From Chlorokybus atmophyticus (taxonomy: Eukaryota; Plantae; Mesostigma and Chlorokybus algae): 64,000 nt of DNA. Positions 7,501 to 45,188 of the stretch are shown here, in pieces (within the stretch, counting starts at the first letter, position 1; each line of letters starts with the position of its first letter). The stretch lies in NCBI GenBank assembly GCA_009103225.1, contig RHPI01000772.1:289538-353537 (forward strand), written 5' to 3'. The position numbers were made by a program, and so were the translations under genes. The notes beneath the pieces are model-generated. The model did no database searches and was not told the DNA's origin. It saw only the letters and a program-made list of their open reading frames with translations.

Positions 7501-10500
7501 TCCTCAGATGCACGACCGTTGCCAATATTTTATCGGCCGGCAGGGGAAACAATTTGCGATGGGCCGTTGACAAAGCGCAAGACCTCATCATGCTTAAAAG
7601 GAAGCAAAACGAGACGCCAGTCCAGTTCTACGAGCACATCGTGAACTTCTGGTCGAGGACACCACCCTTAACGAGATGCCTCTCAACCCTTATCATCTGG
7701 CACGGGTTCATATGGACAACCTTGACCCACCCCTGCGAAAGCATGTGAAGGCTAACATGTGAGGTGAAGCCAATCACACCCTTTACTAGGCATACATGCG
7801 CGCCGTGTACTAGCAAGAGAATTTGGTTTAAGAGCAGGCTGCTCTCGAAATCAGTGGCCTCACACATTGCAGCAGCCGCCCCGGCTTAGTATCCACCCCT
7901 GTACCGCCCAAGCGCACGCGCTCCGCCCATGCCGTTGTGCAAGAAGAGGACAGCCCCTCTCAACCCTGCCACCGGTGCGGCAAGGAGGGGCACCTTATCC
8001 AAATATGCCCGATGCCACGCGATGATGCCCTTTGCAACCACTGCGGCATGGAAGGGCATCTCGAAGTTGTTTGCTACACATTGCTGAGCTCAGGGAATCT
8101 CTGACAACAAAAACCTCTCCAACCGGCACTGGCGCCGACTTGAAAAAAAAAATACAAAGGGAATGGCAAAGGCAAAGCCGGCCCACCCAATAGTAACAAG
8201 TCTAAGGGTAAAATTGCCATCAAGATCGCCTCTGTTGTTAGGGGCAACCCTGACCTCCATGACGAAAGGGATGGTCTTTTAGCCGAGATTAAAGCTCTTC
8301 ACAATCGGAGGGATGAACTAGAGTACCTCCTCAACAGTAACCAGTTAGCGGCCTGCCCGGTCACTTGACCATTCAGAACTCCTGCCATCAGGGGCCCATT
8401 GCCCTTCACACGATATGTTGGGGCAGATCGTCGTACACTCCCCACCTAGCTCATCCACATCCCCACCTTACCAACGAAGAGCAACCTCGCCATCAGCAGA
8501 GGCTGCCGCAGCTAGCACCACCCCGGCACAGGCTGAGTCTTCGCCAGCGGAGGCCACAGCACCTGCTGTCATTACACTTAAAGACATCGCCAGTATAGCC
8601 CCCTCCCCCATTGCTCATGCTGTCCCTAACGACTCCGCCATCATCGGTCGCCATTGACAGGCAGAACTTCCGGAAGGAGTCGAGAGGCACGCCATCCGGT
8701 GGGGCCGTCTTCATAATCACTGGCGCGACAACATGCGCACTCGCCCCATGATGAAGAGGAGCTAATTGATGTGGCATTCCTTCACGCTCGGCAATTTTCT
8801 AATATAATAGCATATTGTTATGATGCCGTGGCAGACAACGATAACACCGTGCAAGATGCTTGGGTGCTGGACAACCTTGGAGGCCTGGTTGGTCTTGTGA
8901 TGGCACGACGCAATGCCCGGTTGGGCAGGCGTTGCACCCCGCCATCGTTAGTCGGATGGAGAAAGTTCTTGACACCCTACCACCTTTCACGCTTCTCATC
9001 ACTGTGTTGTGGGTGCTCAACCTGGCTCAGCATCGCGCTGTCAATGCTCCTGCTCGCAAAGCTCGTAAATGGGGTGTGACTTTGGGTGAACTTCAGGTGG
9101 CATTGGCTTAAATTGTTGCCGAACGTGGCAGCAACCCTTCCTTCCTTTTTCCATTGAGACCGCCCGGCCTAATGCATCTGCCACCCACACCAAGGGAGGT
9201 TGTCATGCGGGAACAGTTAAACGAGTCCGTGTATAGGTATGACATTTATCTGACAACCTTAAATGCGCAGCGAGCCAACATGGCAACAGGAGGGACGCCC
9301 ACTACAGACCAGGCCATCTATCCACAATTCATTGGACGTCTTTGTCACCTGCAGGACGCTACCTAGGCCTAGGCATGGCCATCACCAACCAATGTGGAAA
9401 CCTTGGAACAGAAAATGCTTAAGGCTATTGCAGCAAGATCCCACCATTGGCTATCCGCTCGACGCTGACTTGCCACATAACGACTGTGTACGTCTGAATA
9501 ATGCCATCATTGCACGTGTACACACCCTCTCTCACTTGATCCACTTGGTGCCAACAAACGTACGGTTATCTCCACAACAACTGACGCGATTGAGTAGCCT
9601 GAAGGCATATGAAGACAGAGTCCTCATGGATGTGCTCGAGACCACGCGCCATCGACACACTCATCGATATGAGCCCAACGACTTACTTTCATGACTGGCG
9701 GCACACTAGCTAGCAGCGTAGGCAAACCACAGTTTGATAGATTACAACATGCCAAGAATTTCGTCTCCCACACTAGTTTTGAATTTCACAATGCCCGCAG
9801 TGGAAGGCGAACACCCTCGCGCAGAATCGTGCACGCTGGTACATGACACTCTCCTTCAGCACACGCTCAGCCCACTGCCTCCCACGCCTCCAATATCACT
9901 GCCATCTGAGCTGTCGGCGCTTGCAGACAACACCTTGCACCAGCAATCACTTGACCTGGCACCCACCAATGATGCCAAAGCAGTGTTTTATGAACAAGCA
10001 GCGATTCCAATTGACGCAGCTTCAAACGGTGTATACAATAGCATTCATTCATTCAGGGGCGGTGCACTATGTATAAGAGCGCAGACGTGTCCGCGCCGCC
10101 TTACGGCTGCATCGAGTGGGCCAGCTTCAGGCTAGCGCACCTGAACGCATCGCCAATGAACGTCCATGGGTGTCTACACCAGAGTCAGGTACCGGACACC
10201 CCACGCGCTCTCCGCCACAAGCCTACCTGGGGCACCGGCGACAAGGAGCTTACATGCCGCTGCATCTTGTCCGTGCAGCGCAGGAGCAGCAATTCCGCAT
10301 GGACTACCTCCGCCACAAAGGCTCAGCTCCCGCCATTGCTCTGGAAGAAGACCCCCATACAGCACTTGTCAGTGCTTTTCAAGCTGACAACAAAATGTGT
10401 AGGAGATCTCTGCAAGGCCGCGTGACATGTGAAGACCTACGGCTTGCTCACCAGCGATGACGCCGTCGACAAGTAAAGAAGGCGAAGCGAGAGCTGTGGT

Positions 10501-13826: not shown

Positions 13827-16459
13827 CTTGCCACCAGCATTGGGAGCATGCCCTCACCGGTGAGGGGCTTTGTCGAGCATTATAGGTGGCCTCCCGCGAC
13901 TAACCTAGCCAAGATGGCGGCTTAGAGCCACCTGCTCCACCAGCTGACCCGCCCCCTCCGCTAGTTGATTCACCCCCCTTAAAAGAGTAGGCCCCTTCAA
14001 CAGCGGGGGAATCCACCGCGGAGGGCACATCCGAAGTCGAGATGGAGGACCCAGCTGCACCAACGCAAGAAGGTGAACCACGAGCTGCACTTGTTGTACT
14101 CGCCGAAACATTGGCTGACAGCCCAGCCAACACAGCGTTGTTGCCCCGTCATCATTAAGCCTTTGCGGGCCACCTGACACCATAGACCAACTCCGGTTTC
14201 ACCCAAACATTGGCATAGTTTACAACCTTCTGAGCCATGTCACTTTTGCACACCACTGCTGGTCCCCTCGCCACGTACTGTTTGACACCGGCGCCCATCC
14301 TGTTATCACGTGCAGGCGAGCTGGCGAACTCATTGGTATTGACCTCGATGATTTGGATGAGTTGTCGCACGAGATCCACACTACTTATGGCGCTTTGGAG
14401 ACAACCAGAGGAGAGACGCGCCAGCGCATACCACTGCGCTGCATCGGCTACAGATGAGAAGAGACTACCGTCCAAAATGTGTTTTGCCTTGTCTCCAATT
14501 CGGAAATGTTGGACATCTTCATTGGCATTGAGGCCTTGTTTTCAATCATCGCGGTAATCAACACATGGTTAGAGCACGCACTCTTCCGGCCACGCTGGCA
14601 TCGGGGCAATGGAACACTCGCTGTTGTTCCTCTACGCTTTCGCACCTCTTCTCATTACCCTCTTACATCTATTCCTACCCGACGCGCCAACGTCGTTTTG
14701 CAATGCAGCTTGAACCTGCCTGAGGGGGATCAAGTAAAACCTTAGGCGCTTTACTTAACAAGCTTAAATCACACACGAACACCTTTGCGTGCACTGCGAT
14801 AGGCTTGTCCACATTCATTCTAAGTTAAGGAGCTTGTTGACTTGCAATTTACTCGCACCGTTACACATAAGTGCTAGTTTTAGAGCTGTGTGGGGGGGTT
14901 AAGGGGTATTGCTATATTTGCAAAGGCTTGGTCGCAAGTCTGTGCGACACACTCATTCATTTATTGTTGTAGGCATTGCTAACTTTTGATGATACGTTAT
15001 TCTAGACCGAGCGTATACATTGCGGTTAAAGTTGGTTGGTTATCAGCTTAAGGAGGGGGGNGAGACCAGATAATTGTTCATATGAGGCAGCGTGGTATCC
15101 TTGCACTCGTCCTTGAGGAGACTTATGCAAACAGCACCGGCGGAGTCCAACATCGCCGCTGCTACACAATGTAACTCACGTTTTGAAGTGCATGACAAAA
15201 TATCAACTTCACAAACTGAGGCTCCTCGTAAAGTAGCCAAGCAAGTTCCCGCACAGCACCGCCGGCTTGCACAGGCTATTGCGGCCCGCGTGGCACCGCT
15301 CCAGTCACCTCGCCCCCTGTGCCTCTCGATAGTCTTCGCTAGCTGGACCTTTCTACAATGTGCATGACACCACAGCGGCGTTGCGACGGCAGTATGTCAA
15401 AGGTGATATGTTGTTAAAGGTACATGTATAGGCGGCGCTTACATGTAGTTGGTACGATCAGCTTAACCTTAATAGATACGGGAGTTACAAAAGTTACAGG
15501 AGATTTGGCAGTTATGGTTAGCCGTTATGATCAACCGCCGTCAACTTTCACTTGGACTGTTGACTAATGTTGACTAGTGTTGACTTTGACTCGGATTGAA
15601 TAGAGTTGACTAGTGCTTGATAGCATGGTATATAAGACACTGTATACTGCTTAATACAATGGGTCGCATATTGTCTCTGTAGTTGGCGTGCTTGCTTGTA
15701 ATAGACAAGGCCAAATTTCGTAATTTTCATGGCCATTTTAGGCCTTATTTGTGAGATACCATGTTATTCATAACTTGTGATGGATATCGGCGAGTTGCGA
15801 GTCTGCCGCAGATATCGACCGGCCCAGGGCCTGTCTGGAAGACGCCAGAAAACGGAGGGCCAGTCGAGAAGGGCTCGACTAGATTTCTGGAAGGGCCTGG
15901 CGCCAAGTAGTATAACTTGACTATATGAGCAGCAAATGAGGAGATCTTTGGTGCGTCGGACAGTTCTAAAAGTGTACTACAACATTCTGCAAGAATATCT
16001 TAGCTTCTAGTGCCGTCTAGCGCTAGAATCGTCTAAACAATAGCATGTTCAGACTGATAGGTATAAAAGTGACATTTTACAATTTGCAATACAACCTTTG
16101 GGTCCCTAGTTTCTTGTGTGCAAGCTTGGTGGTGGTTAGCAGGGGTTGCTAGCGTGTGTCCACTGGTGTGTGCTTGCTTGTGTGACGATCCAAGGCGCTA
16201 CACGTGTCGGTGTGTAGCTTGGAGCGCATGCGCGTGCGTATGCGAGTGGCGGGGCGCGCGTGTGTGCTTGGCAGAGGGGGCAAGGTTCCGGTGTGAATAC
16301 CGTGTCTTGGTGAGAGGGTAGTTGATTGGACCAACTCACAGGTGACAAGGCACGAGCACCGTCACAACTGGTATCAGAGCATGGTTTACGAAGGGAGAGC
16401 GGAAGTGTGTGGGCGTTTACACTTTTCATTCGGGAGCGGAGTGTAGTGTGTTAGTGGAG

Positions 16460-17486
16460 ATGGAGGATGCTCGTATGGAAGAGCTTCAAGCTGCCATCTT
16501 AGCATTGAGGGAAGAGCTTCATCACACTCAAGCGGCGGCACAAGCACAACGCGAGGCGTATGAGCATGCGATGACGCGTGTACAAGTTCCCATGGCATCA
16601 AGCTTGCGCGTGCATGTGAAGGTGCCAAAGCCCAAGCCATTCAAGGGTCAACGTAATGGCGATGCAGTGAATGAATGGATTTTTCAAGTATCGTCGGTTG
16701 GAGCTCACGGAGGTACCCGCACACCTACATGTGGAGGTTGCCGCAATATTGCTTGAAAGTGCAGCACTTGTGTGGTGGAGGCATCGATGTACGCATGTTG
16801 CAAGTGGGTTGGCGCTACCATTCACCATCATGGAAGAGTTGGCACTGGAGGTCAGGCATCAATTTGTTCCCGTTGAGAGCGTGAAGGCCGCACGCGACAA
16901 ACTTGCAGCCCTTGTGCAAATGGGGTCGGTGATGGCGTATACGGCTGTGTTGTAGCAATTAGTGATGTCCATACCCAATATGACCGAGGAGGAGCAGCTG
17001 GACATGTATATATGTGGTTTAAAACCTTTGGGGCGTAAAGAAGTGGAGCTACGGGACCCGAAGACACTCGCGGAGGCTATACGCATCGCGGAGCGTCTCA
17101 ACGCGTCGTACTTCAAGTCCACCACCACAAACACTGATTGGAGGCAAAGGCATGGTGATCAGCCCCGGGGAGGCTTTGCACATGCATGAAGATGAGGAGA
17201 ACCAAGCTTAGCGCTTGCCAATGGAGGTGGAGCTGACTCTGGGCCTGCGCCAATGGAGGTGGGTGCCATACACACGCGTGGAAGTGAGGCGAAGCACGGC
17301 GGACGTGGTGAAAGAGGTAAAGGTGTGCGCAAGTGTTATGCGTGTGGGTCGACTTAGCATTTGGCGTACGGATGCCCCAAACGAAGCACGCAAAGGTTAA
17401 CACCGGATGGCAATCCTCGCTGTGATCGTCGCGTCAACACTATGGAGCAAAATGGCGTGGAGCAGGAAAACAGCTTTCCCCAGTAG
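16460..17486 (+). pseudogene. Chromovirus gag
   Basis: PKPKPFKG, AALVWWR, LVQMGSVMAY, YICGLK, PKTLAEAIRIA and knuckle CYACGST*HLAYGC; frameshifts and premature stops. Confidence 0.88.
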
Positions 17487-17508
17487 GTGAGGAGGCTACT
17501 ACTGGGGA
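17465..17508 (+). promoter_or_regulatory. Putative -1 programmed ribosomal frameshift signal (gag-pol)
   Basis: In-frame G_GAA_AAC heptamer, 5-nt spacer, 10-bp stem TCCCCAGTAG/CTACTGGGGA. Gag stops at 17484-17486. The -1 frame leads to protease DSG at 17690. Confidence 0.7.
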
Positions 17509-18068
17509 TAGGAAGGAGCCTCATGCACGTACGAATGCTGTGACAATTCTATCAAGGAGGTCAGAGGAGATGGCTATGAACGCGCCAACGGTGGTGAGTT
17601 ATGCAAAAGAGGAAATCGCAAAGTACTTCGGGCTTCGAGCACACATTTGCGATGACCAAGGACGATAGAGAGAGTGTAAGCTCATAATCGATAGCGGTGC
17701 CAATAGCAACTTTATAAGTTATGATATTGCGCGGCGTTACAGTTGGCTTTCGTCATTACGAGGAGGTGAAGTGAAGCTTGATGATGGAGAGCCACCCTCT
17801 GGAGGTAATGGCGCTGCGTTCATGATCAAAGAGTTGTGCGTTCGCATTGGGAAGATGAAGGAGAACATTCACCTCTCAGATCGCAGGGCGGATCGGCGGC
17901 GGCGGAGGGGGTGAAGGAATGNAGGCTGGTCTCCTACCCCTGGGCAGGGGGGCTCTCTGACCCCGCCTGATTCGGCGGTAGTTTGCCCGCTGCGCTGCAG
18001 CAGCTGGTCAACGCAGCTGACTTTTCTGGTGCAGCTCCTAAACGCTGCACCACGCGGAGACCATAGCC

Positions 18069-21000
18069 ATGGTGGCTGCTGGTGATCAGGGGCAGGTCCC
18101 CCTGACTCCTCTCCTACCTATGGAGGACTTCCCTTTCCTCGGAGGCGTCGTCCATGAGCGACGAGGAGCGTCTCCTGGTGTTCCAGTTCCGGACGAGCCC
18201 GTGCTCAAGCCCGCTACATGGGCGGATGCGGTGGCAGGCGCCCCTCGGCAGCCACCCCTCCATTCTCTCGATAGCATCGAGGGGACTCTCTCAGAGAGTC
18301 CCACTCTCACAGCTAAGTTGATGGCTGATCTTGCACACACTCCAGGCATCATTGCTAGCACCCTCACCACCACATCCGCATATGCTATCTCACTAGATGA
18401 GCGTGCGTGTGAGCGGTGGCAGTCAGTCTTAGAGCAGCAAGCACTAGTGTTTAGATTCAGATGCACTGAGCCTCAGACATTAGAGTCACGCTTGACATGG
18501 ATAGAAGCTTTGAGTGCACGCAACCCGGCTGCTCCACTGATTGCATCAGTGCACTACACACGGGCGGGGGAAATCCAAGCACTCTTTCACACGGCATCCG
18601 GCACAAAGCACGTCCTTGCCCTTGCAGAGCAACGTCGCTTGCCCACGCTGTTGGGCAAGCCAGTCACGGTGCTTTGTTGGAGCGAGGGCGGTGACGACGA
18701 CAACTTCTAGGTCTCCTTCCAGGGAGCGCATCCTCGAGTCCTTTTCTCTCTCTCTCAAGTCCTTTCCCCGTATGGGCAGCTTGGCGATCCCCTCCGCTCA
18801 GCCGCCTCCGCTTCCCGCTCGTTCACCACACCATCTATGCGCTTTTGCTTCAAACGCAAGGCAGGTGCAGTGCTCCCCCCCTCCGTGCTCATCAAGTCCG
18901 TGTCAGGAGGAGTGGAGCACCTCACGGAGGTGCGCATCATCACCCCCCAGACACCTCCCACCTGCTTCCGCTGCAAGCAAGTGGGGCACTTGCGCAGTCA
19001 TTGCACGGCGCCCCTCCCAGCGTTGACGGCAGCACAGCAAGGCGCAGCTCCCCCCCGCAGACCAGGAGCCTCTCCCCCCCTCAACAACCCCCCCCTTTAC
19101 TNNNNNNNNNNNNNNNNNNNNNNNNNNNNNNNNNNNNNNNNNNNNNNNNNNNNNNNNNNNNNNNNNNNNNNNNNNNNNNNNNNNNNNNNNNNNNNNNNNN
19201 NNNNNNNNNNNNNNNNNNNNNNNNNNNNNNNNNNNNNNNNNNNNNNNNNNNNNNNNNNNNNNNNNNNNNNNNNNNNNNNNNNNNNNNNNNNNNNNNNNNN
19301 NNNNNNNNNNNNNNNNNNNNNNNNNNNNNNNNNNNNNNNNNNNNNNNNNNNNNNNNNNNNNNNNNNNNNNNNNNNNNNNNNNNNNNNNNNNNNNNNNNNN
19401 NNNNNNNNNNNNNNNNNNNNNNNNNNNNNNNNNNNNNNNNNNNNNNNNNNNNNNNNNNNNNNNNNNNNNNNNNNNNNNNNNNNNNNNNNNNNNNNNNNNN
19501 NNNNNNNNNNNNNGGCAGCTGCGCAGGCCCCCCCCCCTCGTCTCCCCACCCCACCTTACCCGCACCCTCCGCCAGCGCTTCGTGCGCAGATCTTGCCCTC
19601 GTCCTCCAGCAGCTGCCTCGCATGACTGCTGATGGCCCAACCCAGCAGCAAACGCTGGAAGGTTGGCTGGAGACAAAGCTTCCGCCGCCGCGCGCAGAGC
19701 ACCCTCCTCCCTCCCCGCGTGTGGCTCCGTATCCGTCACCCTCAAAGTTGTGGTGTGACGATCAGGATGAGGAGGATGACCTCCCGCCAGCCCCGCCTGC
19801 TGGTGGGATGGTCCCCCACGACCAGCCAGTGCAAGCTGCTCGCACAACCCAGGCTGATCGCCATCCCCAACAGCGTCTCTGGTTGGGAGAACTGCTTGAG
19901 GATGCGGGTTTCAAGCCTTCTTCTTCACCATGGGAGACGGCGTTCATCGTCCCAGTGGTGCTTGCCAACGCAGGGGACTCCGCTGACTGCTTGTCCCTAC
20001 TTCTCACGGACACAACACAACGCAACACGGGGCTGCGTTTTGGCAACCTCTTCCCCTCTGCGCAGGGTGAGGCTGACGGCATGCAACATTGTTGCTCCAT
20101 ACTGCGGGCAACGCTGGAGCAGGCCGGTGTGTCACTAGACGCCACCAGGAAGGACGCTGAGCTTGAGTCGTCTGTCTCAAACTCAAGCCCACTCGCGGGG
20201 GGCACGCCATTGCATCCGTGCCTATTCGTTCTTTGCCCACTGCTTCTTCCTGCCGAGGCATGCCACCAAGCAACGGCGCAGCAGCAATGGGTGTCCTTGT
20301 CGGAGTGGCAAGCCCAGGCCCGCCCCAAACTTAGCAAGCACGGAAAGCCTCGCATCACACCCTTGATGATAGCCTCCGCGATGCGCACATGGTGGGAGCA
20401 ACATGCACGCACTCCGCTATCATCACCGTCTCACCCCTCCTCCTCACACACAGACTTCTCGGAGTCTCCCTACACTACCCCTCGCCCACACCACCCCGCA
20501 ATGTCCGCCTCCCCATCCCCAATGGACAGCTCCTCCGTTCCCCGCCTCCCTCCCCCATCCCACCACACACCCTTCCGGGAGGCCTCCCCCCCGTCGGTGA
20601 GAAGAAAATTGCAGCTCTCCCCGTCACACCCCCCTCTCCCCGCAATCACCACCACCCCTTCGGAGAGACTTGCACCCCACCCGCATGCTCTGGCAGTCCT
20701 GGTGTACAAGTATGCGGCCCAATGCTGGTGGCTGGGTCTGGTTCGCCAGAACGGCGACAAGCTAACCATCCCGGCTACCTTGCCAGCGGACCCCTCCCCC
20801 TCCGATCATGGTAGGCAGGCGCGGGGGCTGGCTTTGGCCATGCTGGGCGTCCCGGAGTCTACACATTTTACTCGAAGCCCGGAGCTCTCATTCATGCACA
20901 CGGCGGCAGATGGCACGCCATACCATGTTCACACGTGGTTGTGGCACGACGAGGAAGTAATGTCACAACCCCCCAACACCTCAGGCGCGGAGGATGTGCT

Positions 21001-21211
21001 GTGGGTTGATCCACTCCTTGTTGAGGGCGTTGCGGGAGGCAGCCACAACCTCGTTGAGGCACAGGTGCTGGAGATGTTAGAGCACGCTTCTCACGTCACC
21101 GCCAACACCTCCGCTCAGCACCCTTCTTCATGTCCGTCATGGCCTTTGGCTGGCGGAACCCCTCCTCAAGGCGCGCCATACTCTTGGAAGCGGGTGTTGG
21201 GCCTTGACTGA
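18069..21211 (+). pseudogene. LINE ORF1 (DUF4283-like region, CCHC knuckle, long Pro-rich extension with two Nudix-like segments)
   Basis: ORF from ATG 18069 with one in-frame TAG at 18708 (probable TGG). Knuckle CFRCKQVGHLRSHC at ~18960. After the N gap an open frame of ~565 codons runs 19514-21211; its frame relative to the part before the gap is unknown. Confidence 0.75.
19102..19513. other. Assembly gap (N run)
   Basis: 412 N. Confidence 1.
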
Positions 21212-24200
21212 TGCAAGCGTCTTCAAGTCTCACGTCCACGTTCTCCGTGTGGACATGGAATGTTCGAGGCATGAACGGCAATCAGTCAAGCTTGGCAGGT
21301 GCATCTTCGCATGGTCGGCGTCACATATCGGCAATCACCCGCTTTCGCTTATGGCCTTCGACGAAGGATGGAGTCCTTCTTTTGCAAGAGACCAAACTAG
21401 GAACGTCACCAGCTGCTCAATGGACGGCGAAATGCTGTTGGCGAGGCCTGAGTGTGTGGGGCCCTGCGGAAGGCACACGCGGGGGGGTGGCAATCCCGTG
21501 CCCACCAGCTTGGCAGGACTATATCATTGACACAGGCGTGGCCGCCCCTGCTAGATACTTTTGGGTGCGTGTTCGTTGGTTTGGTGGAGTCCTTCTCCTC
21601 GCCAGTGTGTACACACCCTCGGACACGCGAGAGGCCAGAGACGCTTTCTTCTCTACACTCCCCTCTCTCCTCCCTCACGCGGATTGGTATTTGCTGGGTG
21701 GTGACTGGTACTGTGTGGAGGATGTGGATGAGGATTGCTCTCGCCACGGTAGACTCCCTAGCATGGAAGACGCAGGTGCTCTTCATGCGATGGTGGGGGA
21801 GATGGACTTGCATGATGTGTGGCGCAGCTGCAACTTTGGCACTCGCGCCTTCACTTGGGACAACAGGCGTGAGGCCACAGGCTTGCGCGCCTTGATCGGT
21901 TTTATGCTTCCGCCACTCTCAATACTTTCTTCGACAGCTCCTCAATCCTGCAGGAGGAGTGGCTGTCTGACCATAAGCCAGTACATTTATCTATACGCTC
22001 TAGCTCGGAAGTGGACCAGGGCCCGGGCTTGTGGAAGCTCAACCCCGCTCTTCTCAAGCGTTCTTCTTTTATGGCAGAGTTGGAAAGTCTGTAACAGCTG
22101 CACCGGCTTACCTCTCCGCACCCCGGGCAGGCCTACGTACAATGGTTGAAGCTGGGCTTGCGAAGGTTGCCATGATGGCGCGGCAGCACTGGCACACTGT
22201 ATGGCAACAACACAACAGGCAGCTACATCATCTGCAGGACCAGCTGGTCAGATGTGAGGCGGCGTTGTCTGCTAGTCCTGGAGACACAGCCATTCAACTA
22301 GAGCACTCCCGTCTACTGACTGATCTGGGTGCACTCTCTGGGGTGCTGCAAGAAGGTGCTGCAATGCGCTCAAGCGCCCGCTGGCGTCTTTAAGGGGAGC
22401 GGATGACCTCCTTCTTCTTTGCCCAAGGCCGTCCTCATACTCAAGCGCACGTGCTTCATTCTATCACTCATGCCCACGAGCCCTTGCTAACATCGGTGAC
22501 CAGCAATAGTGGTATGTTGGACGAGGTCTCAGCATTCTACCACAAGCTATACACCTCCTCGCCCTCCCCGCCAGCAGCAAAGGCAGCTGCAGCCCGACAG
22601 TGTTGGCAGGCATTGGATAGGAAGGTCTCCGCTCAGCAGGCTTAGGTCTTGGAGTCTCCATTGACGCTGCTTGAGTTGCACGCTGCACTACAGAGCATGC
22701 CCCCGCACAAAGCCCCAGGCAAGGACGGCCTCACCACGGCGTTCTGGCAGACTGCATGGCCTCTCTTAGGGGAGGAGTATTCTCTTTACTGTCAGCACGT
22801 TCAAGCGGAAGGGCGGTTGGGTGAAGGTCAGCGCGAGGGGGTCATCCTCATGTTGCACAAGTAAGGAGAACAGTCTGACCTTCGCAACTGGTGGCCCATC
22901 ACGCTGCTGCCCACCCACTACAAGATTCTGGCTAAAGCTCTAGCAGTTTGCGTGGCGCCTGTGCTTCCTACGGCAGTCCACCCGTCGCAGGCAGGCTTTG
23001 TGCGCCACAGGTACATCGTGGACAATGTGTTAGTGGCCCTGGACACTATGCAGCATGCTGCACACACAGGGCAGCGCGATGCTCTTCTCCTGCTAGACTT
23101 TGAGAAGGCATCCGACCGGTTAGACTGGCACATTCTAAATGGCGCGCTCTCGCATTTGGGCTTCGGCCCGACCTTTCTGCAATGGGAACGCACGATGAAT
23201 GGGGGGAGCTGGAGCTCGGTGCTAGTGTCTTCGCTCTGCACCGCAGTGTGCGACACGGCTGTCCATTGGCTCCCTCTCTTTTCATCCTTGCCACTGAGTG
23301 TTTGGGTGCTCTCCTCCGCATCACTCCTGAGGTTGAGGGTATACGGTTGCTGCAGGACTGCAGGACGAGGCCCACGAGCTAAAGTACACAGGATACGCGG
23401 AAGACACGGAGGTCTACATTGCTCTCACCCCAAGCAGCTTCCACGCCCTTCGCAAAGTCCTGCACCTGTATTGCTTGGCCTCGGATTCAGTCTCAACCTG
23501 AGGAAGTCAAAAGGCATTCTTCTAGGTCCTCCCTCGGATACCCCCCCCCCCCCCCCTGCGGGGTGCATTGGCTGTCAGCAGGGGAAGCGATCTCTCTTCT
23601 TGGTGTTCCCATGGGCATTTCTAACCACCAGGACCAGCTGTTCACCGAGGTGATAGCCAAGATGCGGCGCAAGCTTGAGCTATGGTCGCGCCAGCACTTA
23701 TCCTTGGTGGGGCGGGCTCTCACAGCCAACCAGACCGTCCTGTCATGTCTCTGGTATCTAGCAGCGATAGCCTCTCCCCCGGCGACGGATCTCAGACAGC
23801 TGACCGCCAACTGCAGGGGGGTACATATGGCGGCATGACCCCGAGCAGCGTGCCAGAGGCGGGCAAGTAAACTGGCCCACTGTTTGCTTGCCCAAGCGGC
23901 TTGGGGGCCTAGGGGTGCTGCACCGGACATGGCAAACCACGGCTTTACTAGCCAAGTGGGCTGCCCGCTTGATGGACCTCACATGGGCGGAATGGAAGGT
24001 GCTGGGCTTTCGTCAGGTTTACATGTGGGGTACTGAGCACCTCCCCTCACGGACAGGCCTTTCTCGCTTGATACGCTGGGTACCTGAAGGGGCGGCCCTG
24101 TACGTTGTCGGCCTGCCCATTCGGCACCTTCCGGTGCATTGGCGCAACATCTTTCAGGCGTGGATGCAGGTCCGCCCTGCTGCGCCGTCACCAACAAACT

Positions 24201-25604
24201 TTGATGAGGTTTTGAGACAACCTCTCTTTTACAATGCACACGTTGTGGACGGGCTCGGCCAGGTGGTGGGTGGCTTTCAGCCTTCCAGGCGCTACTGGCG
24301 GCACTGGGCAGAGGTAGGCTTTCTCACGGTGGCAACGCTTTGGGATAGTTGTTCTGCGTCGGCCATGTTCAGCTTCTACCCTTGCACTGTGGGTGCCCTT
24401 GGATGATAGGCCGGAAGAACACGCAGCCGAGCTGTGGAACCTCCTCCCGGCAGCTTGGCGCCTGCTGCTGCACGGCGGGAAAGGGTGTCCTACTGTCGGA
24501 GAGTGGTGGGGCCTTCTCACTCCTGATCACAAGGTCAGTGCGGCACTGCGTGCAGAGTCCACACACGGCCAGCTCTGCACCGGCTTGCTCTTTCCTCTTG
24601 TCGGCGATGAGGGAGACATCCTCGCCCCTCCCCCCCCCCGTTCACGACTGGCATCTCCACGTTGCAGCGCATCCGGGTCCTGCTAGAGCCTGTGCGCTGG
24701 CGAGGCAAGCCCGCCATCGGCTCCCCGGCATGGTTGGCATTGCCCGACACTCAACGCTATCTGGGGTGGCGTGTAGCGGGGGGAGCTCCCTTGCACATGC
24801 TCCACATGGACCCGGCGTTGTCTATATGGGGAACGCAGGCGTCTTCCCCGCAGCAACCCCTCTCATTATGGGATTACACGGTCAAGTTCGGCTACACCCT
24901 CCTCAGCACAGCGCACGCACACCGGGCGCCTGCATTGCGCCGATGGGACCTTGAGCAACACCCGGTATCATGGCCGGCTCACTGGTCGCGCCTGCACAAG
25001 ACACCCTTGGCGGCCAAGCACCGTTCTTTCTTATGGCTATTGTCACACCGGGCATTGCACACAGGTGACAGCATCGCGAAGATGAACCTTTCTGGGGAGT
25101 GTATGTCATGCTCTCGGCAATGTCTTGAGACTCCCGAGCACCTCTTCCTTCGCTACTCGCTGGTCCGTGCAGTCTGGGCTTGGGCCTTTGCTTGGAATGG
25201 AGACGCCTTGGCGGCTCCCCTTTTCCCTCTCCTTTTCCCAGCTGTTTCACACTTCGTTTCCCAGTTCTCACACACAGCTCCATCTGGTGTGGTTGACTCT
25301 TTGCGCATTGACTCTCTGGCACATCTGGGTGGCCAGGTGTTCGGTAATGTACTCAGGTTCCTCTCCCTCCTCGATTGTCATCGTGTGCTCTCTCGCTTCC
25401 AGTGTTCAGGTTTGGGCCAAGGAGGAGTGGCTTCTAGTCACGTTCTCGCGACAGGAAGACATTCGACTTGCTCGTTTCACAGCCTTCACGGACTCGTGGG
25501 CTTGCCACTCTATCCTCTGCTCTACAGCCTGGGCTTCTCCTCTTCCTCGGATACACTGGCATACTCTAGATACTAGTGTTCGTGATGTGTTCTCTATTGA
25601 TTAG
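21211..25604 (+). pseudogene. LINE ORF2 (APE endonuclease, RT, zf-RVT)
   Basis: WTWNVRG, LLQETK, LLGGDW, SDHKPV; RT PITLL..YKILAKAL, QAGFV, LDFEKASD, VRHGCPLAPSLF, YAED; C-terminal CMSC...ETPEHL and LWHIW; multiple stops and frameshifts. Confidence 0.92.
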
Positions 25605-28600
25605 CATGTACTAGCCTTTTTGTCGCCTCAAACTCTTGCATGTTTCTTCTTCATACATTTCTCTTGTTAAAATTAAAAAAAAAACAAAGGAAAATGAAAG
25701 AGAACATGCGATTTTGCTGCATCACCCTACGGAACGGGTTTGACGGGATTTTGGGACTACTGTGGCTATGGCAACATAATTCATCCATTAATTGGAGGAA
25801 GCGCATGCTCACCATCGAACGAAATGGTGAAGAGTCCATTCAAGCTGCGTCGGACGTCATTGAGGCGCGGCACGCACAATCAGGTGGTACGACGACTGAC
25901 CAAATCTCTAATGTGCAATTGAGGAAGTTATTGTCTCCACGGAAGGCAAAGGCTGTATGGTTGTGCGTGGTGCGTGAAAACACTGCAAAGTCAGCACCGG
26001 AGCTAAGTGACGATGTTAAGATGGCTACGATGGACCCCAAGGTGTGTAAACTTGTTAAAGAGTACCAAGATATCATGGTGGACGGACTTCCATCTGGTCT
26101 ACCACCTCCACGGAGCGTAGACCACCGTGTGGAGCTGATTGAGGGCGTGCACAAGCCACCGTATCGACCCGTATACAAGTTGTCACCTTTGGAGCTGAAA
26201 GAGGCCGAGAGGCAGGTGGGGGACTTGCTGAAAAGAGGCTACATCAGGCCTACAACATCACGAAGAGGAATTGCTTTCCACTCCCATGTATTGACAAGTT
26301 GCTGGAGCAAGTGCAAGGTGCGCAGTATTTCACAACACTTGATCTTGCTGGAGGTTATCACCAAATCCGCATCGCGCCCGAGGATGTGGAGAAAACAGCT
26401 TTTAACACACGTTATGGGCACTACGAGTGGTTGGTTATGTTTTTCGGACTTACGAATGCGCCGGCAACTGTTTAAACGCTAATGAACAGCGTTTTCGCTG
26501 ACTTGATTGGTAAGGGAGTCCTCGTGTACCTCAACGACCATTTGGTGTACGCGAAGACAAAAGAGGAGCACGTGGCACTTCTACGGCGCGTGTTGCAGCG
26601 TTTGCGCGAACACAAGGTGTACGCCCAGCTACAAAAGTGCAAGTTCTTGCTTCGAGAGGTAGAGTACCTAGGCCACATCGTGTCGCATGAAGGCATCAAG
26701 CCGGACCCCAACAAAGTGCAGGTGGTGCGCGAGTGGGCTTCCCTGACCAACGTAAAGGAGGTGATGTCTTTTTTGGGCCTTGCGGGATATTATCGCAAGT
26801 ATACCATGGGGTTTTCGCGCATAGCTGCTCCCTTGATTGCCCTACTCAAGAAGGGAAAGCCTTGAAGCTGGTCAGCAACAGAGGAACATGCATTTGCTGC
26901 GTTGAAGAAAGGCGCTGACGGAGGCACCAATCCTGGCTCACCCCGACATGGAAAAGACATTTATTTTGGCTTGCGACGCGTCCGACACAGCCGTAGGAGC
27001 TGTTTTGCAGCAAGACCATGGCAACGGCCTTCAACCGGTAGCAATTTTCAGCAAGAAGATGAGTGGTGCGGAGCTGAATTACCCCGTGCACGAGAAGGAA
27101 CTTTGGCGCAAGTAATGGCGCTACGACAATGGCGTTGTTTTCTGGAAGGCAAAAAGTTCATGCTTGAGACGGATCACTCTCCACTGAGGTACTTACAAAC
27201 ACAACCTCATGCAAGTCGCAGACAAGCACGATGGCTGAGTTCTTTCAACTTTTTAACTTCGATACCAAGTACAAGCCCGGTACGTCAAATGGTGTTGCTG
27301 ACGCGCTGAGCCGGCTTAATGCAAATGAGGCACTCGCTCAAGTGCAGCCCGAGTGGACTGACCGGATTCGGCAAGTGCTTCGTGAAGACATGGAGGGTAT
27401 GAAAGTGTTGCAAGAGCTGAAAAGTGCAGCTACGGACACAAGTGGGCATTGGTCAATGCGCGACGGGCTGCTATGGCACCACGGGCGCTTGTACATCCCC
27501 AATGTCGCGCATATCCGTGTGAAGTTGCTGAAGGAAGCCCATGACGTGCCCATTGCTGGTTACCAAGGGTTAGAGAGAACTTTGGCAAGCTTGAAGCAGC
27601 GTTTTTACTGGCGAGAGATGCATCGCGATGTGCGCGACTACGTGGCGTTGTGCGACGCATGCCAAAAGGTGAAGGCAAGCAACCAAAAGCCAGGTGGGTT
27701 GCTGCAACCTCTCCCTGTGCCATTGTGCAAGTGGGAGCAAGTTACCATGGACTTGATCACGGGGCTACCAAAAACAAAAGAAGGGTACGACGCTATACTT
27801 GTGTTCGTTGACAAAACTAGCAAAATGTAGATTTTGGGAGGCGCTGCATAGTGCACTGGGTACCACACTGAAGTTTAGCACGGCATGCCACCCCCAAACT
27901 GACGGGCAAACGGAACGGGCCAACTGTGTGATCGAGGACATGCTGCGTTGCTACGCTAACGCGCGACAAGACAATGGGGCGGAGCTGCTTAAGTTGGTGG
28001 AGTTTGCGATCAACAACCACCACAATGCAAGCACAGGTGTCACTCCCTGCCTTATGAACTACGGGCAACATCCATAGACACCGTTGACTGCATGGACACC
28101 GCGACGACATGACGTGCGTGTGGAGGCAGTTAATGACTTTCTCACAAAGTGCGCGGACATTAATAAGGCAGCTAGGGAGGCGCTATTTGTGGCATAATAC
28201 AGGCAGAAAAGCAGTACGCGGACGCGCATCGCCGACACCTCACCTTTCAGGAAGGCGACATTGTGTTACTCTTCGCGAAGCATGTACAGGTGCGTACGGG
28301 AGTTAGCAAGCTGAATAAACGCTGGTTGAGACCATTTAAGGTCAGCAAAGTTATTTCGGACGTGGCGTACAAGCTGGAGCTACCCGAAACCATGCGTGTG
28401 CACCCCGTTTTTCACGTCTCCCTTCTAAAGGCATATCGAGGACAACCGCCAGAAAGGCCGCCCCCCAAAGTTGGCACGGATGGTGAACCAGAGTGGGAGG
28501 TAGAAGACATCCTTGGTGAGAAGTTTGTGCACGGCGTGCGCAAGTTCTTAGTTAAATGGAAGGGCAATCTATTGCATGAAGCATCCTGGGAGCCAGAGGC

Positions 28601-29459
28601 ACACTTGGCTAATGCTCGAGACGTTGTGCGCGACTATTTTGCTCGACGACAACCTCGCGAGCTTCGAGGACGAAGCTCACCTAGGGGGGGAGGAGTATAA
28701 CAGACATGGCCAAATCTCGTGATTTTCATGGCCATTTTAGGCCTTATTTGTGAGATACCATGTTATTCATGACTTGTGGCGGATATCGGCGAGTTGCGAG
28801 TCTGCCGCAGATATCGACCGGCTCAGGGCCAGTCTGGAAGACGCCAGACTGCCAAACGCCATAACGGAGGGCCAGTCGAGAAGGGCTCGACCAGATTTCT
28901 GGAAGGGCCTGGCGCCAAGTATCATAACTTGACCATATGAGCAGCAAATGAGGAGATCTTTGGTGCGTCGGGAAGGTCTAGAAGTGTACTACAAGATTCT
29001 GCAAGAATATCTTAGCTTCTAGTGCCGCCTAGCGCTAGAATCGTCTAAACAGTAGCATGTGCAGACTGATAGGTATAAAAGTGACATTCTACAATTTGCA
29101 ATACAACCTTTAGCTCCCTAGTTTCTTGTGTGCAAGCTTGGCGGTGGTTAGCAGGGGTTGCTAGCGTGTGTCCACTGGTGTGTGCTTGCTTGTGTGACGA
29201 TCCAAGGCGCTACACGAGTCGGTGTGTAGTTTGGAGCGCATGCGCGTGCGTACGCGAGTGGCGAGGCGCGCGTGTGTGCTTGGCAGAGGGGGCAAGGTTC
29301 CGGTGTGAATACCGTGTCTTGGTGAGAGGGTTGTTGATTGGACCAACTCACAGGTGACAAGACACGAGCACCGTCACATTGCTGCACTTGTCTTTGGTGT
29401 GTGCACACTTGTATGTGGGGGGGCATACACACACACTAGGTGCATCACTAGTTCTCAAC

Positions 29460-30480
29460 ACCATTACTTTATTGAAAATGTTTGGAGGAGTCGGCAGTAG
29501 ATTAGCAACCGTGCTAAGCGTGGGCATCCCAGTCAGCAATAACTTCTGCTACAACCCAAGCCCGCAAGCACAGACCGCAGTGTTTCATTACCTGTTTTAA
29601 ATGCGCAAGGAGTTCCTACTGCTGGAGCCGTGCGCACCTGCAGGCAGCCTTCGTGCCTTACCTCAAGACAATCGCCTCATTACAGGGGAACACATGCTGG
29701 CAAGGGGGGGTTGACCTCATCGTATGCGGATGGGAATGTTAAGGGCACTCATGCGGAGGCAAAGGGAGTTGACCTGCAATACCCAAGGTTTAAGTTGTTT
29801 GGGAGTTGGTGCGCATCATACATACACTTCAGTAGCACCATGACAGACCTCCAACATACCTTCATGAGAACGTCTGTGCTCAAGATGACCGATGCGGCAA
29901 TGTGCGTGCCGACTACGAACAAGTTGCACAATGCTCGGCGCACCCATGGTAATCAACGCTGCTGCTCACGGCTCTCGTGCCCGCGAGTTGCACAGCATGT
30001 GGACAAACCTTAATAATGCAGAAGACTTGGCAGCAGCTCAACTTATGTCCGTTAGGCCCCTTGGCCTACAAGTTCAAGACATCTTGGCTCCTGGGGCTAC
30101 ACCTTAATCGGACACTCGTCCAGACAACATGTCACAGCCCACTCGACCATAGAAGACTTGATGCTTTTATGGTCGATTTGTGTTTATTTAATGAACTTTT
30201 CCGTTACACAACAAGCACTTTCACCCATGCAACAAGGTTGGTCATCATGTGGCTGCCTTGCCAACATTGTTGGCTTACAGAGGCTCACATTTATTTTGCA
30301 ATGGCAACATTGGTATGGTTTAAAATAGAAGTCTCAACTATCTGCGAGAACCTCTGGCCACTGAACGCGAGTTGGCAATGGGATTTTGGCCTGATGCCAT
30401 CACGCATGCTCTTAAGCTGGCAAAACGCAACTACCGAGAGCTACCTGCTCGCGCCATGGACCAGAAGAAGCATGATTTGG
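29460..30480 (+). pseudogene. DNMT3-like C5 cytosine methyltransferase domain inside the gypsy pol
   Basis: Motifs in canonical order: I ITLLKMFGGVGS (29463-29498); IV VDLIVCGWEC*GHS (Cys 29737); VI PPTYLHENV (ENV 29866-29874); VIII LGAPMVINAAAHGSRARELHSMWTNL (29934-30011); IX REPLATERELAMGF (30345-30386); X RELPARAMD (30435-30461). Confidence 0.85.
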
Positions 30481-30571
30481 TTGCTAAAGCATGCTAAAAC
30501 ATGCTGAGCCCTTCAATACAGCTATTTGCCACGCCAATCACCCTGGCCAAACGCTAGGGGGCGGGGGGAAA

Positions 30572-31128
30572 NNNNNNNNNNNNNNNNNNNNNNNNNNNNN
30601 NNNNNNNNNNNNNNNNNNNNNNNNNNNNNNNNNNNNNNNNNNNNNNNNNNNNNNNNNNNNNNNNNNNNNNNNNNNNNNNNNNNNNNNNNNNNNNNNNNNN
30701 NNNNNNNNNNNNNNNNNNNNNNNNNNNNNNNNNNNNNNNNNNNNNNNNNNNNNNNNNNNNNNNNNNNNNNNNNNNNNNNNNNNNNNNNNNNNNNNNNNNN
30801 NNNNNNNNNNNNNNNNNNNNNNNNNNNNNNNNNNNNNNNNNNNNNNNNNNNNNNNNNNNNNNNNNNNNNNNNNNNNNNNNNNNNNNNNNNNNNNNNNNNN
30901 NNNNNNNNNNNNNNNNNNNNNNNNNNNNNNNNNNNNNNNNNNNNNNNNNNNNNNNNNNNNNNNNNNNNNNNNNNNNNNNNNNNNNNNNNNNNNNNNNNNN
31001 NNNNNNNNNNNNNNNNNNNNNNNNNNNNNNNNNNNNNNNNNNNNNNNNNNNNNNNNNNNNNNNNNNNNNNNNNNNNNNNNNNNNNNNNNNNNNNNNNNNN
31101 NNNNNNNNNNNNNNNNNNNNNNNNNNNN
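30572..31128. other. Assembly gap (N run) between the DNMT and RT regions
   Basis: 557 N flanked by G-rich tracts. Confidence 1.
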
Positions 31129-34099
31129 GGGGGGGGGGGGGGGGGCGTGAAAACTAGGGACCCATTATTCATCTGCATGGGTATTCACGGCGTCGAATCT
31201 AAAGCACTTGAGGAAGAGCTTGACGCCCCTCCCTCACAGCTACGAACCGGAGCAAGAAGGTTGGCGTATTTGCTGTATGGCCTCCGACAACGTTGAGGAC
31301 AAGTTAGAGCCTCTCGTTCAAGAGCACAAGACACAATTTGCACATTCACTCAAAGACTAGGCAAGTGCACCTTCATGAATTCACTATTGACTTGGACACA
31401 CCTGGGCCCATCTTCCGCAGGAAGCATCCGTTGGCAAAGATTGACGTGGAGCTCATTAAGACCAACTGCAAAAAGCTGCTGGACGCAGGATTCACTCAAG
31501 AAGCAACACCCAGCACACAATATGCAGCAGCAACCGTCATGCGCATGAAGAAGGATGAGCAAGGACAATGGACACAACGGCGCATGTGCGGCGATATCGC
31601 AATCTTCGCAACCACATTGTGCGGGATCGCTACTGCATGTATACACCTGATGAGATTTTTTACATTTGCACCTGTAAGTACTTTTTAATGTTGGATATGC
31701 GCTATGAGTTTCATCAAATCGGCATCCAGGCGGAGGACAAGTGTAAAACCGTTTCTTGGGGCACCCAACATTGTATCAATAAAAGGTTATGCCTTTAGGG
31801 AGAATGCACCTGCCGTCTTCCACCGCATAATGGACAAAATCCTTCATGGGCTAGACAACTCCATGTGTTACATCGATGACATCCACACTGCTAAAGCGAA
31901 CCTGCAGCACATCGAAGAGGTATTGCACAGACCAAAGAAGCACGGGCTAACAGCACACTCTTAGAAATGTACCCTTTTTGCTGACAGGATTCCATACCTC
32001 GGCCACCTTATTCTCCCCAACGGAGCGATGGTGCAGCAGGCAAAAGTGGATGTGTTGCTGAAGGTGCCACTACCCACGGACATCTCGCGGCTGCATGCCT
32101 TCCTTGATCTTGCCAACTACTACCGACGGTTTATGCTCAACTTCTCCAGGTTGGCCAACCCCTCGATGACCTGCTGAACAAGGCCAGCACTTAGCACTGG
32201 GGTGAAGCCGAGCAACAAGCCTTCAAGGCGCTAAAAGGCCACCCGCAGTAGGCCCCCATCCTGGCGCGCTCTGACTACAGTGAGCCCCTCATACTCCACA
32301 CCGACTATAGTCGGCTTGGGCTGGGTGCGGTGCTCTGCCAGAAGAATATAAAGGGCAAGGAACAGGTCACTGACCTGTTCCTTGCCATTTGGCATTGCCT
32401 ACCAGCCAAAGTAATAACGCTGCAGAAGCTAACTACATCATCTATGAAGGGGAGCAGCTTGCAGCTGTTTGGGCCATTCCTGTTCTGTTCTTTCGGCCAT
32501 TCCTTTTCGACTACAAGTTCGAGCAAGTAATTGACCACCAGCCCCTGCAATGGCTTCTCTCTCTCTCTCACAAGCAACAAACTCACTGGCAAGCACGCGT
32601 GTTGGGCCTTGCTGCTGCAGGAATACGAATTTACCAATACCCACAAGGCGGGCATTGTCAACACTGATGCTGATGGCTTGAGTCGCAACCCCAACCCCGA
32701 CACGGTGGATGCCACTGGCGCCCGATACAACGGTGACACCCCGCAAAGACGCCGTGTTGGTCGTAGCAGCTAGCATACCCGCCGAGGCCCGCAACTCAAT
32801 GCTCAGGGCCACCATACCCTCTGCAAGTGAAAGAGACATTTGGATGTATGAGCTCACCTTGCAGCTGGTCAAAACAAGAGCTCTGCTAATTAAGCTGGAC
32901 CACAAAGCTGACCGCGCGCAGCACCATTAAAAGAAAAACACTTGGGACAACGACGCCCTGTGACGCATTATAAATTATGGCCAGCGTAAGGAGGTTCCGC
33001 CACCCAACCGCCGGGCGTCCATCACCTCCAACTTGCATTACCAGCTTGGGCACTTCCGCATGAAGCGCAATGCCCAACATGGTGCATGGTGACTACTGGT
33101 GGGACGGACTTGCACGCAAAGTTGCAAAGGTGTTGAGACAGTGTAAGCCCTGCAATCGCATCCGGGCAAGCTTCTCACATCGCCACCCTCAGCTGCACCC
33201 CTTGCCCATTATGGGCTTGGTCAGCGCTGGAGCATGGACCTTGCAGGCGAGCTACCCGTCATTCGTCGCGGCAACGTATACATACTTGTCGCCATCGAAC
33301 ATTTCAGCAAGTGGGTGGAGATACCTTTACCAGAAAAGACAGTAGCGACGGTGATGCGGGCTTACCTGGAGCATATTCTCACCGAATCTGGTGCATGTGC
33401 AGTGCTGCTTACTAACAACGGCACCGATTTCAAGGGAAGTTCGACATTCTGCGCAACCGCTCACTTATCGATCACCGCCGCACCAGCCGTGATCATCCTC
33501 AGGCGGATGGCCTGGAAGAGAGGATGGTGCAAACAGTCAAGTCAAGAAAGCGCTCCGTTGCTACTGTGTGACCCACCGGCAGGAGAAAAGAAGAGTGGGA
33601 TGATTTTCTGGTTTGGCTCGCGCTTGGGAACCGCTGCACGAGCCAACAGCCTTGCGTAGCTTTAGCCTATGTTTCCTCATGTTCTGGCGGGAACCGCCGC
33701 TGCCCTTTCGCATCCGTCACGCGACACAAGCAATGGAGGACATCATCAACAAACCCACTGACATGATGGAGGTGTCGACAACCCGGGCTACAGTGCTCAC
33801 AGCCTTTGTGCCCATGGCTTTTGCCAACCTCAAGAGTGCGCAACAACGGGACAAGCAGCGCGACACACACGTAGCGGGGGCTATATAACATAGACACGCA
33901 ACGCTTGAGACTATTTTTACCCAAAAAAGCAAACCAAAGACACTTTAGACCCGGCCAACTACGGCACCGTATGCAAGATGGTACAAGTGTGCGCTCAAGG
34001 CACACTGTCATTGCGGGACCCCTCTGGTGGCACCGAGATGAACCACGTGCAAAACTGCTTCCCTTGTCACCCCCCGTACGTTAAAGGCCTTAGCAAACC

Positions 34100-34250
34100 C
34101 CGCCCGCTCGAACGGAAACTGCAATCCATCGGTTGCGCGTCTAATCATCAGCCATAGTTGGAGTGTGACACTTGCCGGAAGTATTGACATGAGGCTTGCA
34201 GTCTCGTGTAACAAGTGTTGTCGCCGACCCCAACATGGCGTCTTGCTCTG
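34100..34250 (+). pseudogene. Degenerate PHD finger at the integrase C-terminus
   Basis: IGCASNHQP*LECDTCRKY*HEAC...PTPTW fits the PHD pattern LxCDxCxxwwHxxC...W; the first Cys pair and the end are decayed. Confidence 0.6.

Positions 34251-37108: not shown

Positions 37109-45188
<8,080 letters not shown>

Follow-up and report, generated by a model that had tools for sequence, protein, structure and literature searches.

A cytosine methyltransferase (DNMT) had been predicted upstream of a Gypsy reverse transcriptase (RT) in a 64-kb stretch of DNA, which is called the window throughout. This raises the questions whether a Gypsy element had carried a methyltransferase of its own, to which kind of element it belonged, and what such an enzyme would have done for a transposon. 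The reading that we prefer, at a probability of roughly 85%, is that the window contains a decayed DNMT3-like domain, which very likely was a part of a Gypsy Pol, and that the ancestral enzyme would likely have methylated new cDNA prior to integration.

Detection of a DNMT3-Like Domain

A near-complete, dead C5-methyltransferase domain was found at 29460-30464 on the plus strand. Its conserved motifs follow each other in the unpermuted order I-IV-VI-VIII-IX-X and are spread across two reading frames (Table 1). The original prediction had claimed DNMT motifs in order on one strand, and all motifs quoted in it were found at their predicted places. The region 29463-30554, with stop codons written as X, was used as a phmmer query, and the matches, which are cluster representatives at 50% identity, comprised 235 proteins at E≤1e-3; 51 of these reached 1e-10, and the best value was 1.5e-20. 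A profile match to C5-methyltransferases had been proposed as a check, and the family profile that was built from the phmmer matches covered the domain in four pieces, spanning model positions 5-319 of 320. Because this profile derives from matches to the window's own frame, the middle piece, whose frame the query did not contain, was tested separately, and it reached 46.8 bits versus a maximum of 6.5 bits in 200 shuffled sequences. No second DNMT match to the family profile was present in the six frames of the window.

The more specific proposal of a PF00145 match had a divided outcome. A direct Pfam scan of five open reading frames (ORFs) of the DNMT region and of four frames with read-through of stops yielded no family, and thus no PF00145 on the pieces in the window, whereas 17 of the 30 phmmer relatives that were scanned matched PF00145 at E≤1e-3. 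A phmmer search of the PDB with the window frame retrieved nothing relevant, only two designed proteins, and in a word-indexed protein search with 29937-30554, which covered longer proteins only, none of the 1304 candidates passed.

Table 1. Coordinates of the DNMT3-like domain, of the other parts of the element and of the interrupting chromovirus in the window.
Feature	Position	Strand	Evidence and remarks
gag zinc-knuckle remnant, tentatively same element	7904..8083	+	tblastn of P0161, E=6e-5
Aspartic protease, DTGA motif, probably same element	14272..14598	+	family HMM 38 bits; PF13650 only E=0.12
Chromovirus Gypsy, younger and unrelated, between protease and DNMT	15697..29378	+	perfect 5-bp target duplication
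DNMT3-like piece 1, motifs I-III, SAM-binding part	29460..29711	+	HMM 5-89, 33 bits; one stop, at 29598
Motif I	29472-29495	+	frame 3
DNMT3-like piece 2, motif IV GWEC with catalytic Cys, motif VI ENV	29701..29934	+	HMM 91-171, 43 bits; frame differs from piece 1; four stops
Motif IV	29713-29739	+	frame 1; then a stop, then GHS at 29743-29751
Motif VI, ENV	29866-29874	+	frame 1
DNMT3-like piece 3, motif VIII and start of target-recognition region	29937..30129	+	HMM 165-237, 50 bits; one stop
Motif VIII	29940-30011	+	
Insertion of ~84 nt within DNMT domain	30130..30213	+	6-nt direct repeat at both sides
DNMT3-like piece 4, target-recognition region, motifs IX and X	30210..30464	+	HMM 236-319, 70 bits; one stop
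Motif IX	30348-30386	+	frame 3
Motif X	30438-30461	+	frame 3
Assembly gap, 557 N, between two G-runs	30572..31128	.	
Gypsy RT, frameshifted	31464..32162	+	PF00078 E=1e-7; family HMM 139 bits
RNase H, frameshifted	32195..32644	+	PF17919 6e-12, PF17917 2.4e-8
Integrase (H2C2 zinc finger and core), frameshifted	32988..33649	+	PF17921, PF00665
Integrase C-terminal region, ends in decayed PHD finger	33867..34247	+	tblastn of P0161 residues 2210-2342, 43.5 bits

State of the Copy in the Window

The domain carries two frameshifts and seven stops, besides four stops in the short insertion. The latter is flanked by direct repeat copies at 30124-30129 and 30208-30213 and contains an internal 9-nt inverted repeat; no further copy of it was present in the window. 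The catalytic Cys of motif IV and the Glu of motif VI are retained. In contrast, both arginines of motif VIII (RxR) are replaced, and the acidic residue of motif II, which is D or E in the relatives, is N. It had been proposed that the copy is a dead member of its family, which agrees with the frameshifts, the stops and the insertion, and no enzyme can be made from it.

One deviation requires a different explanation. The residue preceding the catalytic Cys is E (EC) in 69 of 123 relatives and P (PC) in 37 of them. EC was considered as a decay mutation and this was rejected; since EC is the majority state of the family, it is inherited. The motifs that had been quoted in the original prediction therefore have to be judged differently, motif IV with its EC being normal for the family, while the quoted motif VIII lacks both arginines.

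Kinship to DNMT3

When the family profile was compared with the PDB, the top 29 of 52 matched sequences were DNMT3A/B/C (best 1.4e-22), followed by DRM (3.6e-11) and then by M.HhaI (1e-7). The predicted structure of the intact relative P0083 had a pLDDT of 96 and matched the fold of DNMT3A/3B/3C with an E value of 8e-21 and TM values of 0.7-0.8. Based on the profile ranking and the predicted fold of the relatives, the domain would be closest to DNMT3, ahead of DRM, DNMT2 and the bacterial enzymes. Identity between the window DNMT and the DNMTs that were retrieved did not exceed 39-40%.

Among the relatives the catalytic residues are well conserved: the Cys of motif IV is kept in 113 of 123 rows (9 further rows have a gap), and the Glu of motif VI as well as the second Arg of motif VIII in 119 of 123 rows each. 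The near invariance of these three residues argues for a real enzyme in the family.

Two Slots for the DNMT in Pol

In the relatives the DNMT occupies one of two slots, either between RNase H and integrase (type A) or between protease and RT (type B). Type A was assigned when the DNMT followed RT/RNase H or directly preceded the integrase, and type B when it lay between protease and RT. The best 150 of the 235 matches comprised 77 type A proteins, 12 type B proteins and 61 fragments without assignment. In type A relatives (P0003, P0018, P0055, P0058, P0142 and others) the catalytic residues are intact, and a PHD finger is present at the C-terminus. The DNMT shares one ORF with RT and RNase H in the intact relatives P0161, P0164, P0166, P0167 and P0152. 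The intact type B protein P0161 has 2358 amino acids and contains protease, DNMT, RT, RNase H, integrase and PHD finger in one ORF.

The window element was compared with both types domain by domain. The DNMT trees were calculated without the 27 of 150 matches that had fewer than 180 aligned residues. In the FastTree phylogeny (124 rows) the window fell into a clade of 20 rows that contained all ten B rows and no A row (support 96). In an IQ-TREE phylogeny of 41 chosen rows, A was split from B plus window with 100/95; its bootstrap had not settled, and 4 of the 18 B rows had been labelled from their tree position instead of their architecture. The parts behind the gap gave the same picture. The RT-RNase H tree grouped the window with all seven B proteins versus 49 A proteins (86/90), the closest being P0164 with 54% identity, and the integrase tree grouped it with all four B proteins versus 61 A proteins (support 94). 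In the protease tree the window was in a 13-row clade with 12 type B proteases (support 90), on a long branch. The division into A and B architectures is congruent across these four domain trees. In addition, RNase H and integrase are about 115 codons apart in the window, compared with 118-128 in four type B and 492-980 in 47 type A relatives, and thus the window Pol has no DNMT in the type A slot.

These data bear on the possibility that the DNMT came from a type A element or is a host DNMT3 pseudogene, which lies beside an unrelated RT by chance. Although type A prevails among the best matches, the window DNMT groups with B in two trees, it is neither preceded by an RNase H nor directly followed by an integrase, and it is collinear with the model of the transposon family, the single short insertion being the only break and none being of intron size. 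We therefore regard a type A or host origin as very improbable.

Probable Linkage of DNMT and RT Across the Assembly Gap

As had been predicted, an assembly gap lies between the DNMT and the RT. A distance of ~0.9 kb had been given, and the RT model starts ~990 nt after the end of the DNMT model, including the N residues. P0161 is collinear with the window from the DNMT, across the gap, to the decayed PHD finger at about 34250. Also P0164, P0166 and P0167, which like P0161 contain DNMT, RT, RNase H and integrase in a single ORF, align in order across the gap. The lengths fit as well. Without the N residues the DNMT-RT linker has 144 codons, while it has 107-187 codons in nine type B relatives and 143-159 in four of them. 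From motif X to a tryptophan in front of the RT there are 81 codons in the window and 79-118 in six relatives. The G-run at the edge of the gap lies 32 codons past motif X, and GG is found at 28-37 codons in six relatives. The linker in front of the RT begins at about 31260. Against the linker profiles of either type, the 36 residues that follow motif X gave no score.

The linker length argues that the true length of the gap is probably near zero and that DNMT and RT likely belonged to one Pol; the assembled gap probably overestimates a break at a G homopolymer. The joins across the gap are deduced from relatives and lengths rather than from a spanning read and are likely on this basis; that both sides formed one ORF is, in our opinion, highly probable. 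Alternatively, the gap could hide the true junction, with the DNMT and the RT-RNase H-integrase part stemming from two type B copies in tandem or nested arrangement, or from an assembly mis-join. The 557 N between the parts, the nest of insertions in the window and the ease with which multi-copy elements are mis-joined would be compatible with this, but the linker length, the distance to the tryptophan and the position of the G-run fit one continuous ORF, and the type of the element would be unchanged either way. We consider such a hidden junction improbable. The central claim of the original prediction, a dead Gypsy element whose RT is preceded by a DNMT3-like domain, was supported by the collinearity with P0161 and by the DNMT, RT, integrase and protease trees, which all indicated type B.

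Further Putative Parts of the Element and Nested Insertions

The window is eukaryotic DNA with a GC content of ~51% and has a nest of transposons in its left half. Protease, RT, RNase H and integrase, with domains of the Gypsy type, are present in this order, as in Ty3/Gypsy elements. The PHD profile reached just 8.9 bits at the C-terminal end of the integrase region and was not significant in a scan of the whole window. That the protease belongs to the same element is probable, if less so than the joint ORF across the gap; without the chromovirus its distance to the DNMT would be ~387 codons, while it is 33-300 codons in 14 of 15 relatives and 659 in one. If the assignment of the protease is correct, the element predates the chromovirus that interrupts it. 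A dispersed repeat is found at 3901-4007 and at 14747-14854 (81% identical), and its second copy, between protease and chromovirus, may explain the long protease-DNMT spacing. Between the gag knuckle remnant and the protease there are ~2.9 kb of extra DNA without explanation. At 8900-11300, between the putative gag knuckle and a copia-like element, ~2.4 kb of decayed ORF-like sequence without a convincing Pfam match were observed, which may be a further insertion or a long spacer between gag and pol.

The chromovirus is delimited by long terminal repeats (LTRs) at 15697-16366 and 28696-29378, which have 33 differences in 670 columns (4.9% divergence). It contains a chromodomain (PF00385) at ~28500 and, at ~16369, what we take to be a primer site of the tRNA-Met type. 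A LINE of ~7.7 kb with endonuclease-like and RT-like ORFs and a zf-RVT domain (PF13966) is nested inside it (~17930-25590). The LTR that ends at 29378 was considered as the 5' LTR of the DNMT element and was rejected, because it pairs with the LTR at 15697-16366 and closes the chromovirus. Terminal repeats of the DNMT element were not found in the window, and a comparison of the 5' flank with 34201-37100 gave one 30-nt match at chance level. DIRS-like repeats of the A-coding-B-A-B type were likewise not found in the window.

Two additional repeats were observed further upstream. The small copia-like element at 11313-13826 has 414-nt LTRs (2.9% diverged) and ORFs resembling gag and protease; neither an RT nor an integrase was seen in it, and its flanking 5-mers agree at three of five positions. 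A tandem duplication of ~620 nt with 91% identity is located at 4511-5759.

Host Genes and Position of the Host

Downstream of the element, at about 37100-44000 on the minus strand, lies an intron-rich gene for a kinesin-like calmodulin-binding protein (KCBP/ZWICHEL, MyTH4-FERM-motor). In a kinesin tree of 52 rows, none of which was named Klebsormidium, it was sister to a Mesostigma protein (67% identical, support 95), and both were inside the streptophyte clade (support 100). Judging from this one gene, the host has its position beside Mesostigma as an early-branching streptophyte alga and is neither a land plant nor a chlorophyte. A long G/C homopolymer with one N was observed inside the kinesin gene (~39900-40070). 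Two further regions on the minus strand presumably are genes, one with short repeated helical motifs and mTERF-like in appearance (52862-54207), the other with exons that seem to resemble a histone deacetylase family protein (62013-63152).

Possible Function of the DNMT in the Replication Cycle

Gypsy Pol is packaged together with Gag and RNA; inside the particle it is cleaved by the protease and synthesizes cDNA. A DNMT within a Pol that is packaged and cut in the particle would be delivered in cis to unmethylated cDNA. It could methylate this cDNA, probably at CG like DNMT3A and SymbioDIRS-Dnmt3, and the product would be a new copy that is already methylated, probably at CG, before it is integrated. 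We give this scenario an even chance. A CG-marked copy might pass for host DNA or might damp its own expression. In Klebsormidium, CG methylation is found on gene bodies as well as on transposons, while CHG and CHH methylation are found on silent transposons (de Mendoza et al., 2018, PMC5890265); with a CG mark, a new copy might therefore be taken for host DNA. From what is known of its family, the PHD finger would be predicted to read histone tails and thereby to guide integration.

The element itself retains no trace of self-methylation, since its CpG content is not below that of its surroundings: the observed/expected ratio was 0.66-0.75 in the element, 0.61 in the host kinesin gene and 0.51 in the copia-like element. 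This is one of several observations that would fit a different task of the domain, e.g., as a DNA- or chromatin-binding module, or in the methylation of RNA or of a host target site instead of cDNA. Others are the occupation of two distinct Pol slots, the replacement of the canonical PC by EC in the majority of the relatives, and the inactivity of the Klebsormidium Gypsy enzyme in yeast; yet the yeast assay likewise gave no activity with human DNMT3B, for which reason the authors call the result inconclusive (PMC5890265), and the relatives keep Cys, Glu and Arg almost without exception. A task of this kind is unlikely in our view, but it has considerably more weight than the two alternatives discussed above, and methylation of new cDNA is still the preferred reading.

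Range and Origin of the Family

A host was named for 9 of the 30 relatives that were looked up. Seven hosts are streptophytes, all on the B side (Closterium with six proteins, Calypogeia with one), and two are chlorophytes, both on the A side (Scenedesmus sp. and Cymbomonas, the latter with P0136, an annotated protein without RT/RNase H). A tentative scenario, which we would rate below even odds, is that Gypsy-DNMT3, rather than being peculiar to Klebsormidium, goes back to one ancient capture predating the chlorophyte-streptophyte split and diverged into two sister lineages, both PHD-bearing and with different Pol slots. Under this equally tentative scheme the DNMT would precede the RT in streptophytes (the Mesostigma-side alga, Closterium, a liverwort) and, in chlorophytes (Scenedesmus, Cymbomonas), would follow RNase H and precede the integrase. 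Were it true, the window would bear witness to this family in the earliest-branching streptophyte lineage.

As such, the locus is a fossil, and the concept of a Gypsy element carrying a DNMT3 has been in print since 2018. The suggestion that it might represent a new lineage is therefore correct in part: the host lineage is new and the copy is divergent, but the kind of element was already known. The window adds range, as Gypsy-DNMT3 reaches the earliest streptophyte branch, and a single broken query led to a large family (235 clusters at 50% identity) with chlorophyte members and two Pol slots. Literature searches in openly accessible text found no report of two DNMT slots or of chlorophyte members; terms specific to the family occurred there in the 2018 article and in a 2026 preprint only, and no papers were retrieved that connect DNMT3, retrotransposons and Closterium. 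Intact ORFs such as P0161 and P0164 make it possible to address experimentally why a transposon carries an enzyme that normally silences transposons, and also to test the activity of a Gypsy DNMT, which was left unsettled by the yeast assay of 2018 (PMC5890265).

Comparison With Known Systems

In sequence and fold the best matches of the family are mammalian DNMT3A/3B/3C, with which it shares the motif order I-IV-VI-VIII-IX-X, whereas the motif order of plant DRM is permuted. From both groups the family differs in several respects: it is 22-24% identical to them, it has WEC or WPC instead of SPC in motif IV, its segment between motifs II and III is longer, its target-recognition region is family-specific, and no PWWP or ADD was among the Pfam matches of the relatives.

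The capture of DNMTs by retrotransposons had been cited in the original prediction as known in charophytes and dinoflagellates, and the Klebsormidium and Symbiodinium cases are indeed described by de Mendoza et al. (2018, PMC5890265). SymbioDIRS-Dnmt3 and SymbioLINE-Dnmt of Symbiodinium likewise have a cytosine methyltransferase on a retrotransposon. SymbioDIRS-Dnmt3 is reported there to methylate CG de novo in yeast and, similar to the Gypsy-DNMT family, to exist with two domain orders in Pol (PMC5890265). As described in that article, the Symbiodinium elements are DIRS elements with a tyrosine recombinase or LINEs, whereas the window element has a Gypsy RT, an RNase H and a DDE-type integrase.

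EpiLTRs/DAM-LTRs are Ty3/Gypsy elements with a methyltransferase in Pol, which were described in a preprint, some of them from green algae including Cymbomonas (bioRxiv 10.64898/2026.05.21.726589). Their DNMT is said there to be sister to DNMT4 and to be located at the 3' end of Pol together with DAM and a chromodomain, while the window DNMT precedes the RT and is DNMT3-like. Pfam detected no chromodomain or DAM in 31151-34501, the chromodomain further upstream being that of the nested chromovirus. In this preprint Gypsy-DNMT3 is regarded as an acquisition of its own, made in streptophytes, and Sarre et al. (2025, PMC12344493), in the part concerned with these elements, repeat the range of 2018 and call the LTR elements Copia.

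The closest known system is KnitGypsy-Dnmt3 of Klebsormidium nitens, in which a DNMT3-related domain is encoded in the Gypsy Pol ORF, flanked by DIRS-like A-coding-B-A-B repeats, and for which a Ka/Ks below 0.2 was reported for the DNMTs (PMC5890265). It shares with the window a Gypsy element in a streptophyte alga and an intronless DNMT3-related domain with unpermuted motifs inside Pol. The differences are the host, which is Klebsormidium there and has its position beside Mesostigma here, and that the window copy is dead; among the 30 relatives looked up, no entry bore the name Klebsormidium. The main text of 2018 does not give the domain order, and thus the likeness concerns the kind of element and not type A or B. 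Loci of type B relatives were searched with P0164 (0 of 16) and P0161 (3 of 49). In two of the three fetched loci, L002 (10279-10994) and L003 (3014-3678), a B-x-B pair of direct repeats ~530 nt apart follows the PHD finger; L001 ends inside the integrase, and a 5' A copy was not seen. L002 and L003 encode a DDE-type integrase despite this DIRS-like repeat pair, which fits the A-coding-B-A-B layout given for KnitGypsy-Dnmt3 in the legend of Figure 4c (PMC5890265). Taken together, it is well supported that the window element belongs to the Gypsy-DNMT3 kind that KnitGypsy-Dnmt3 represents.
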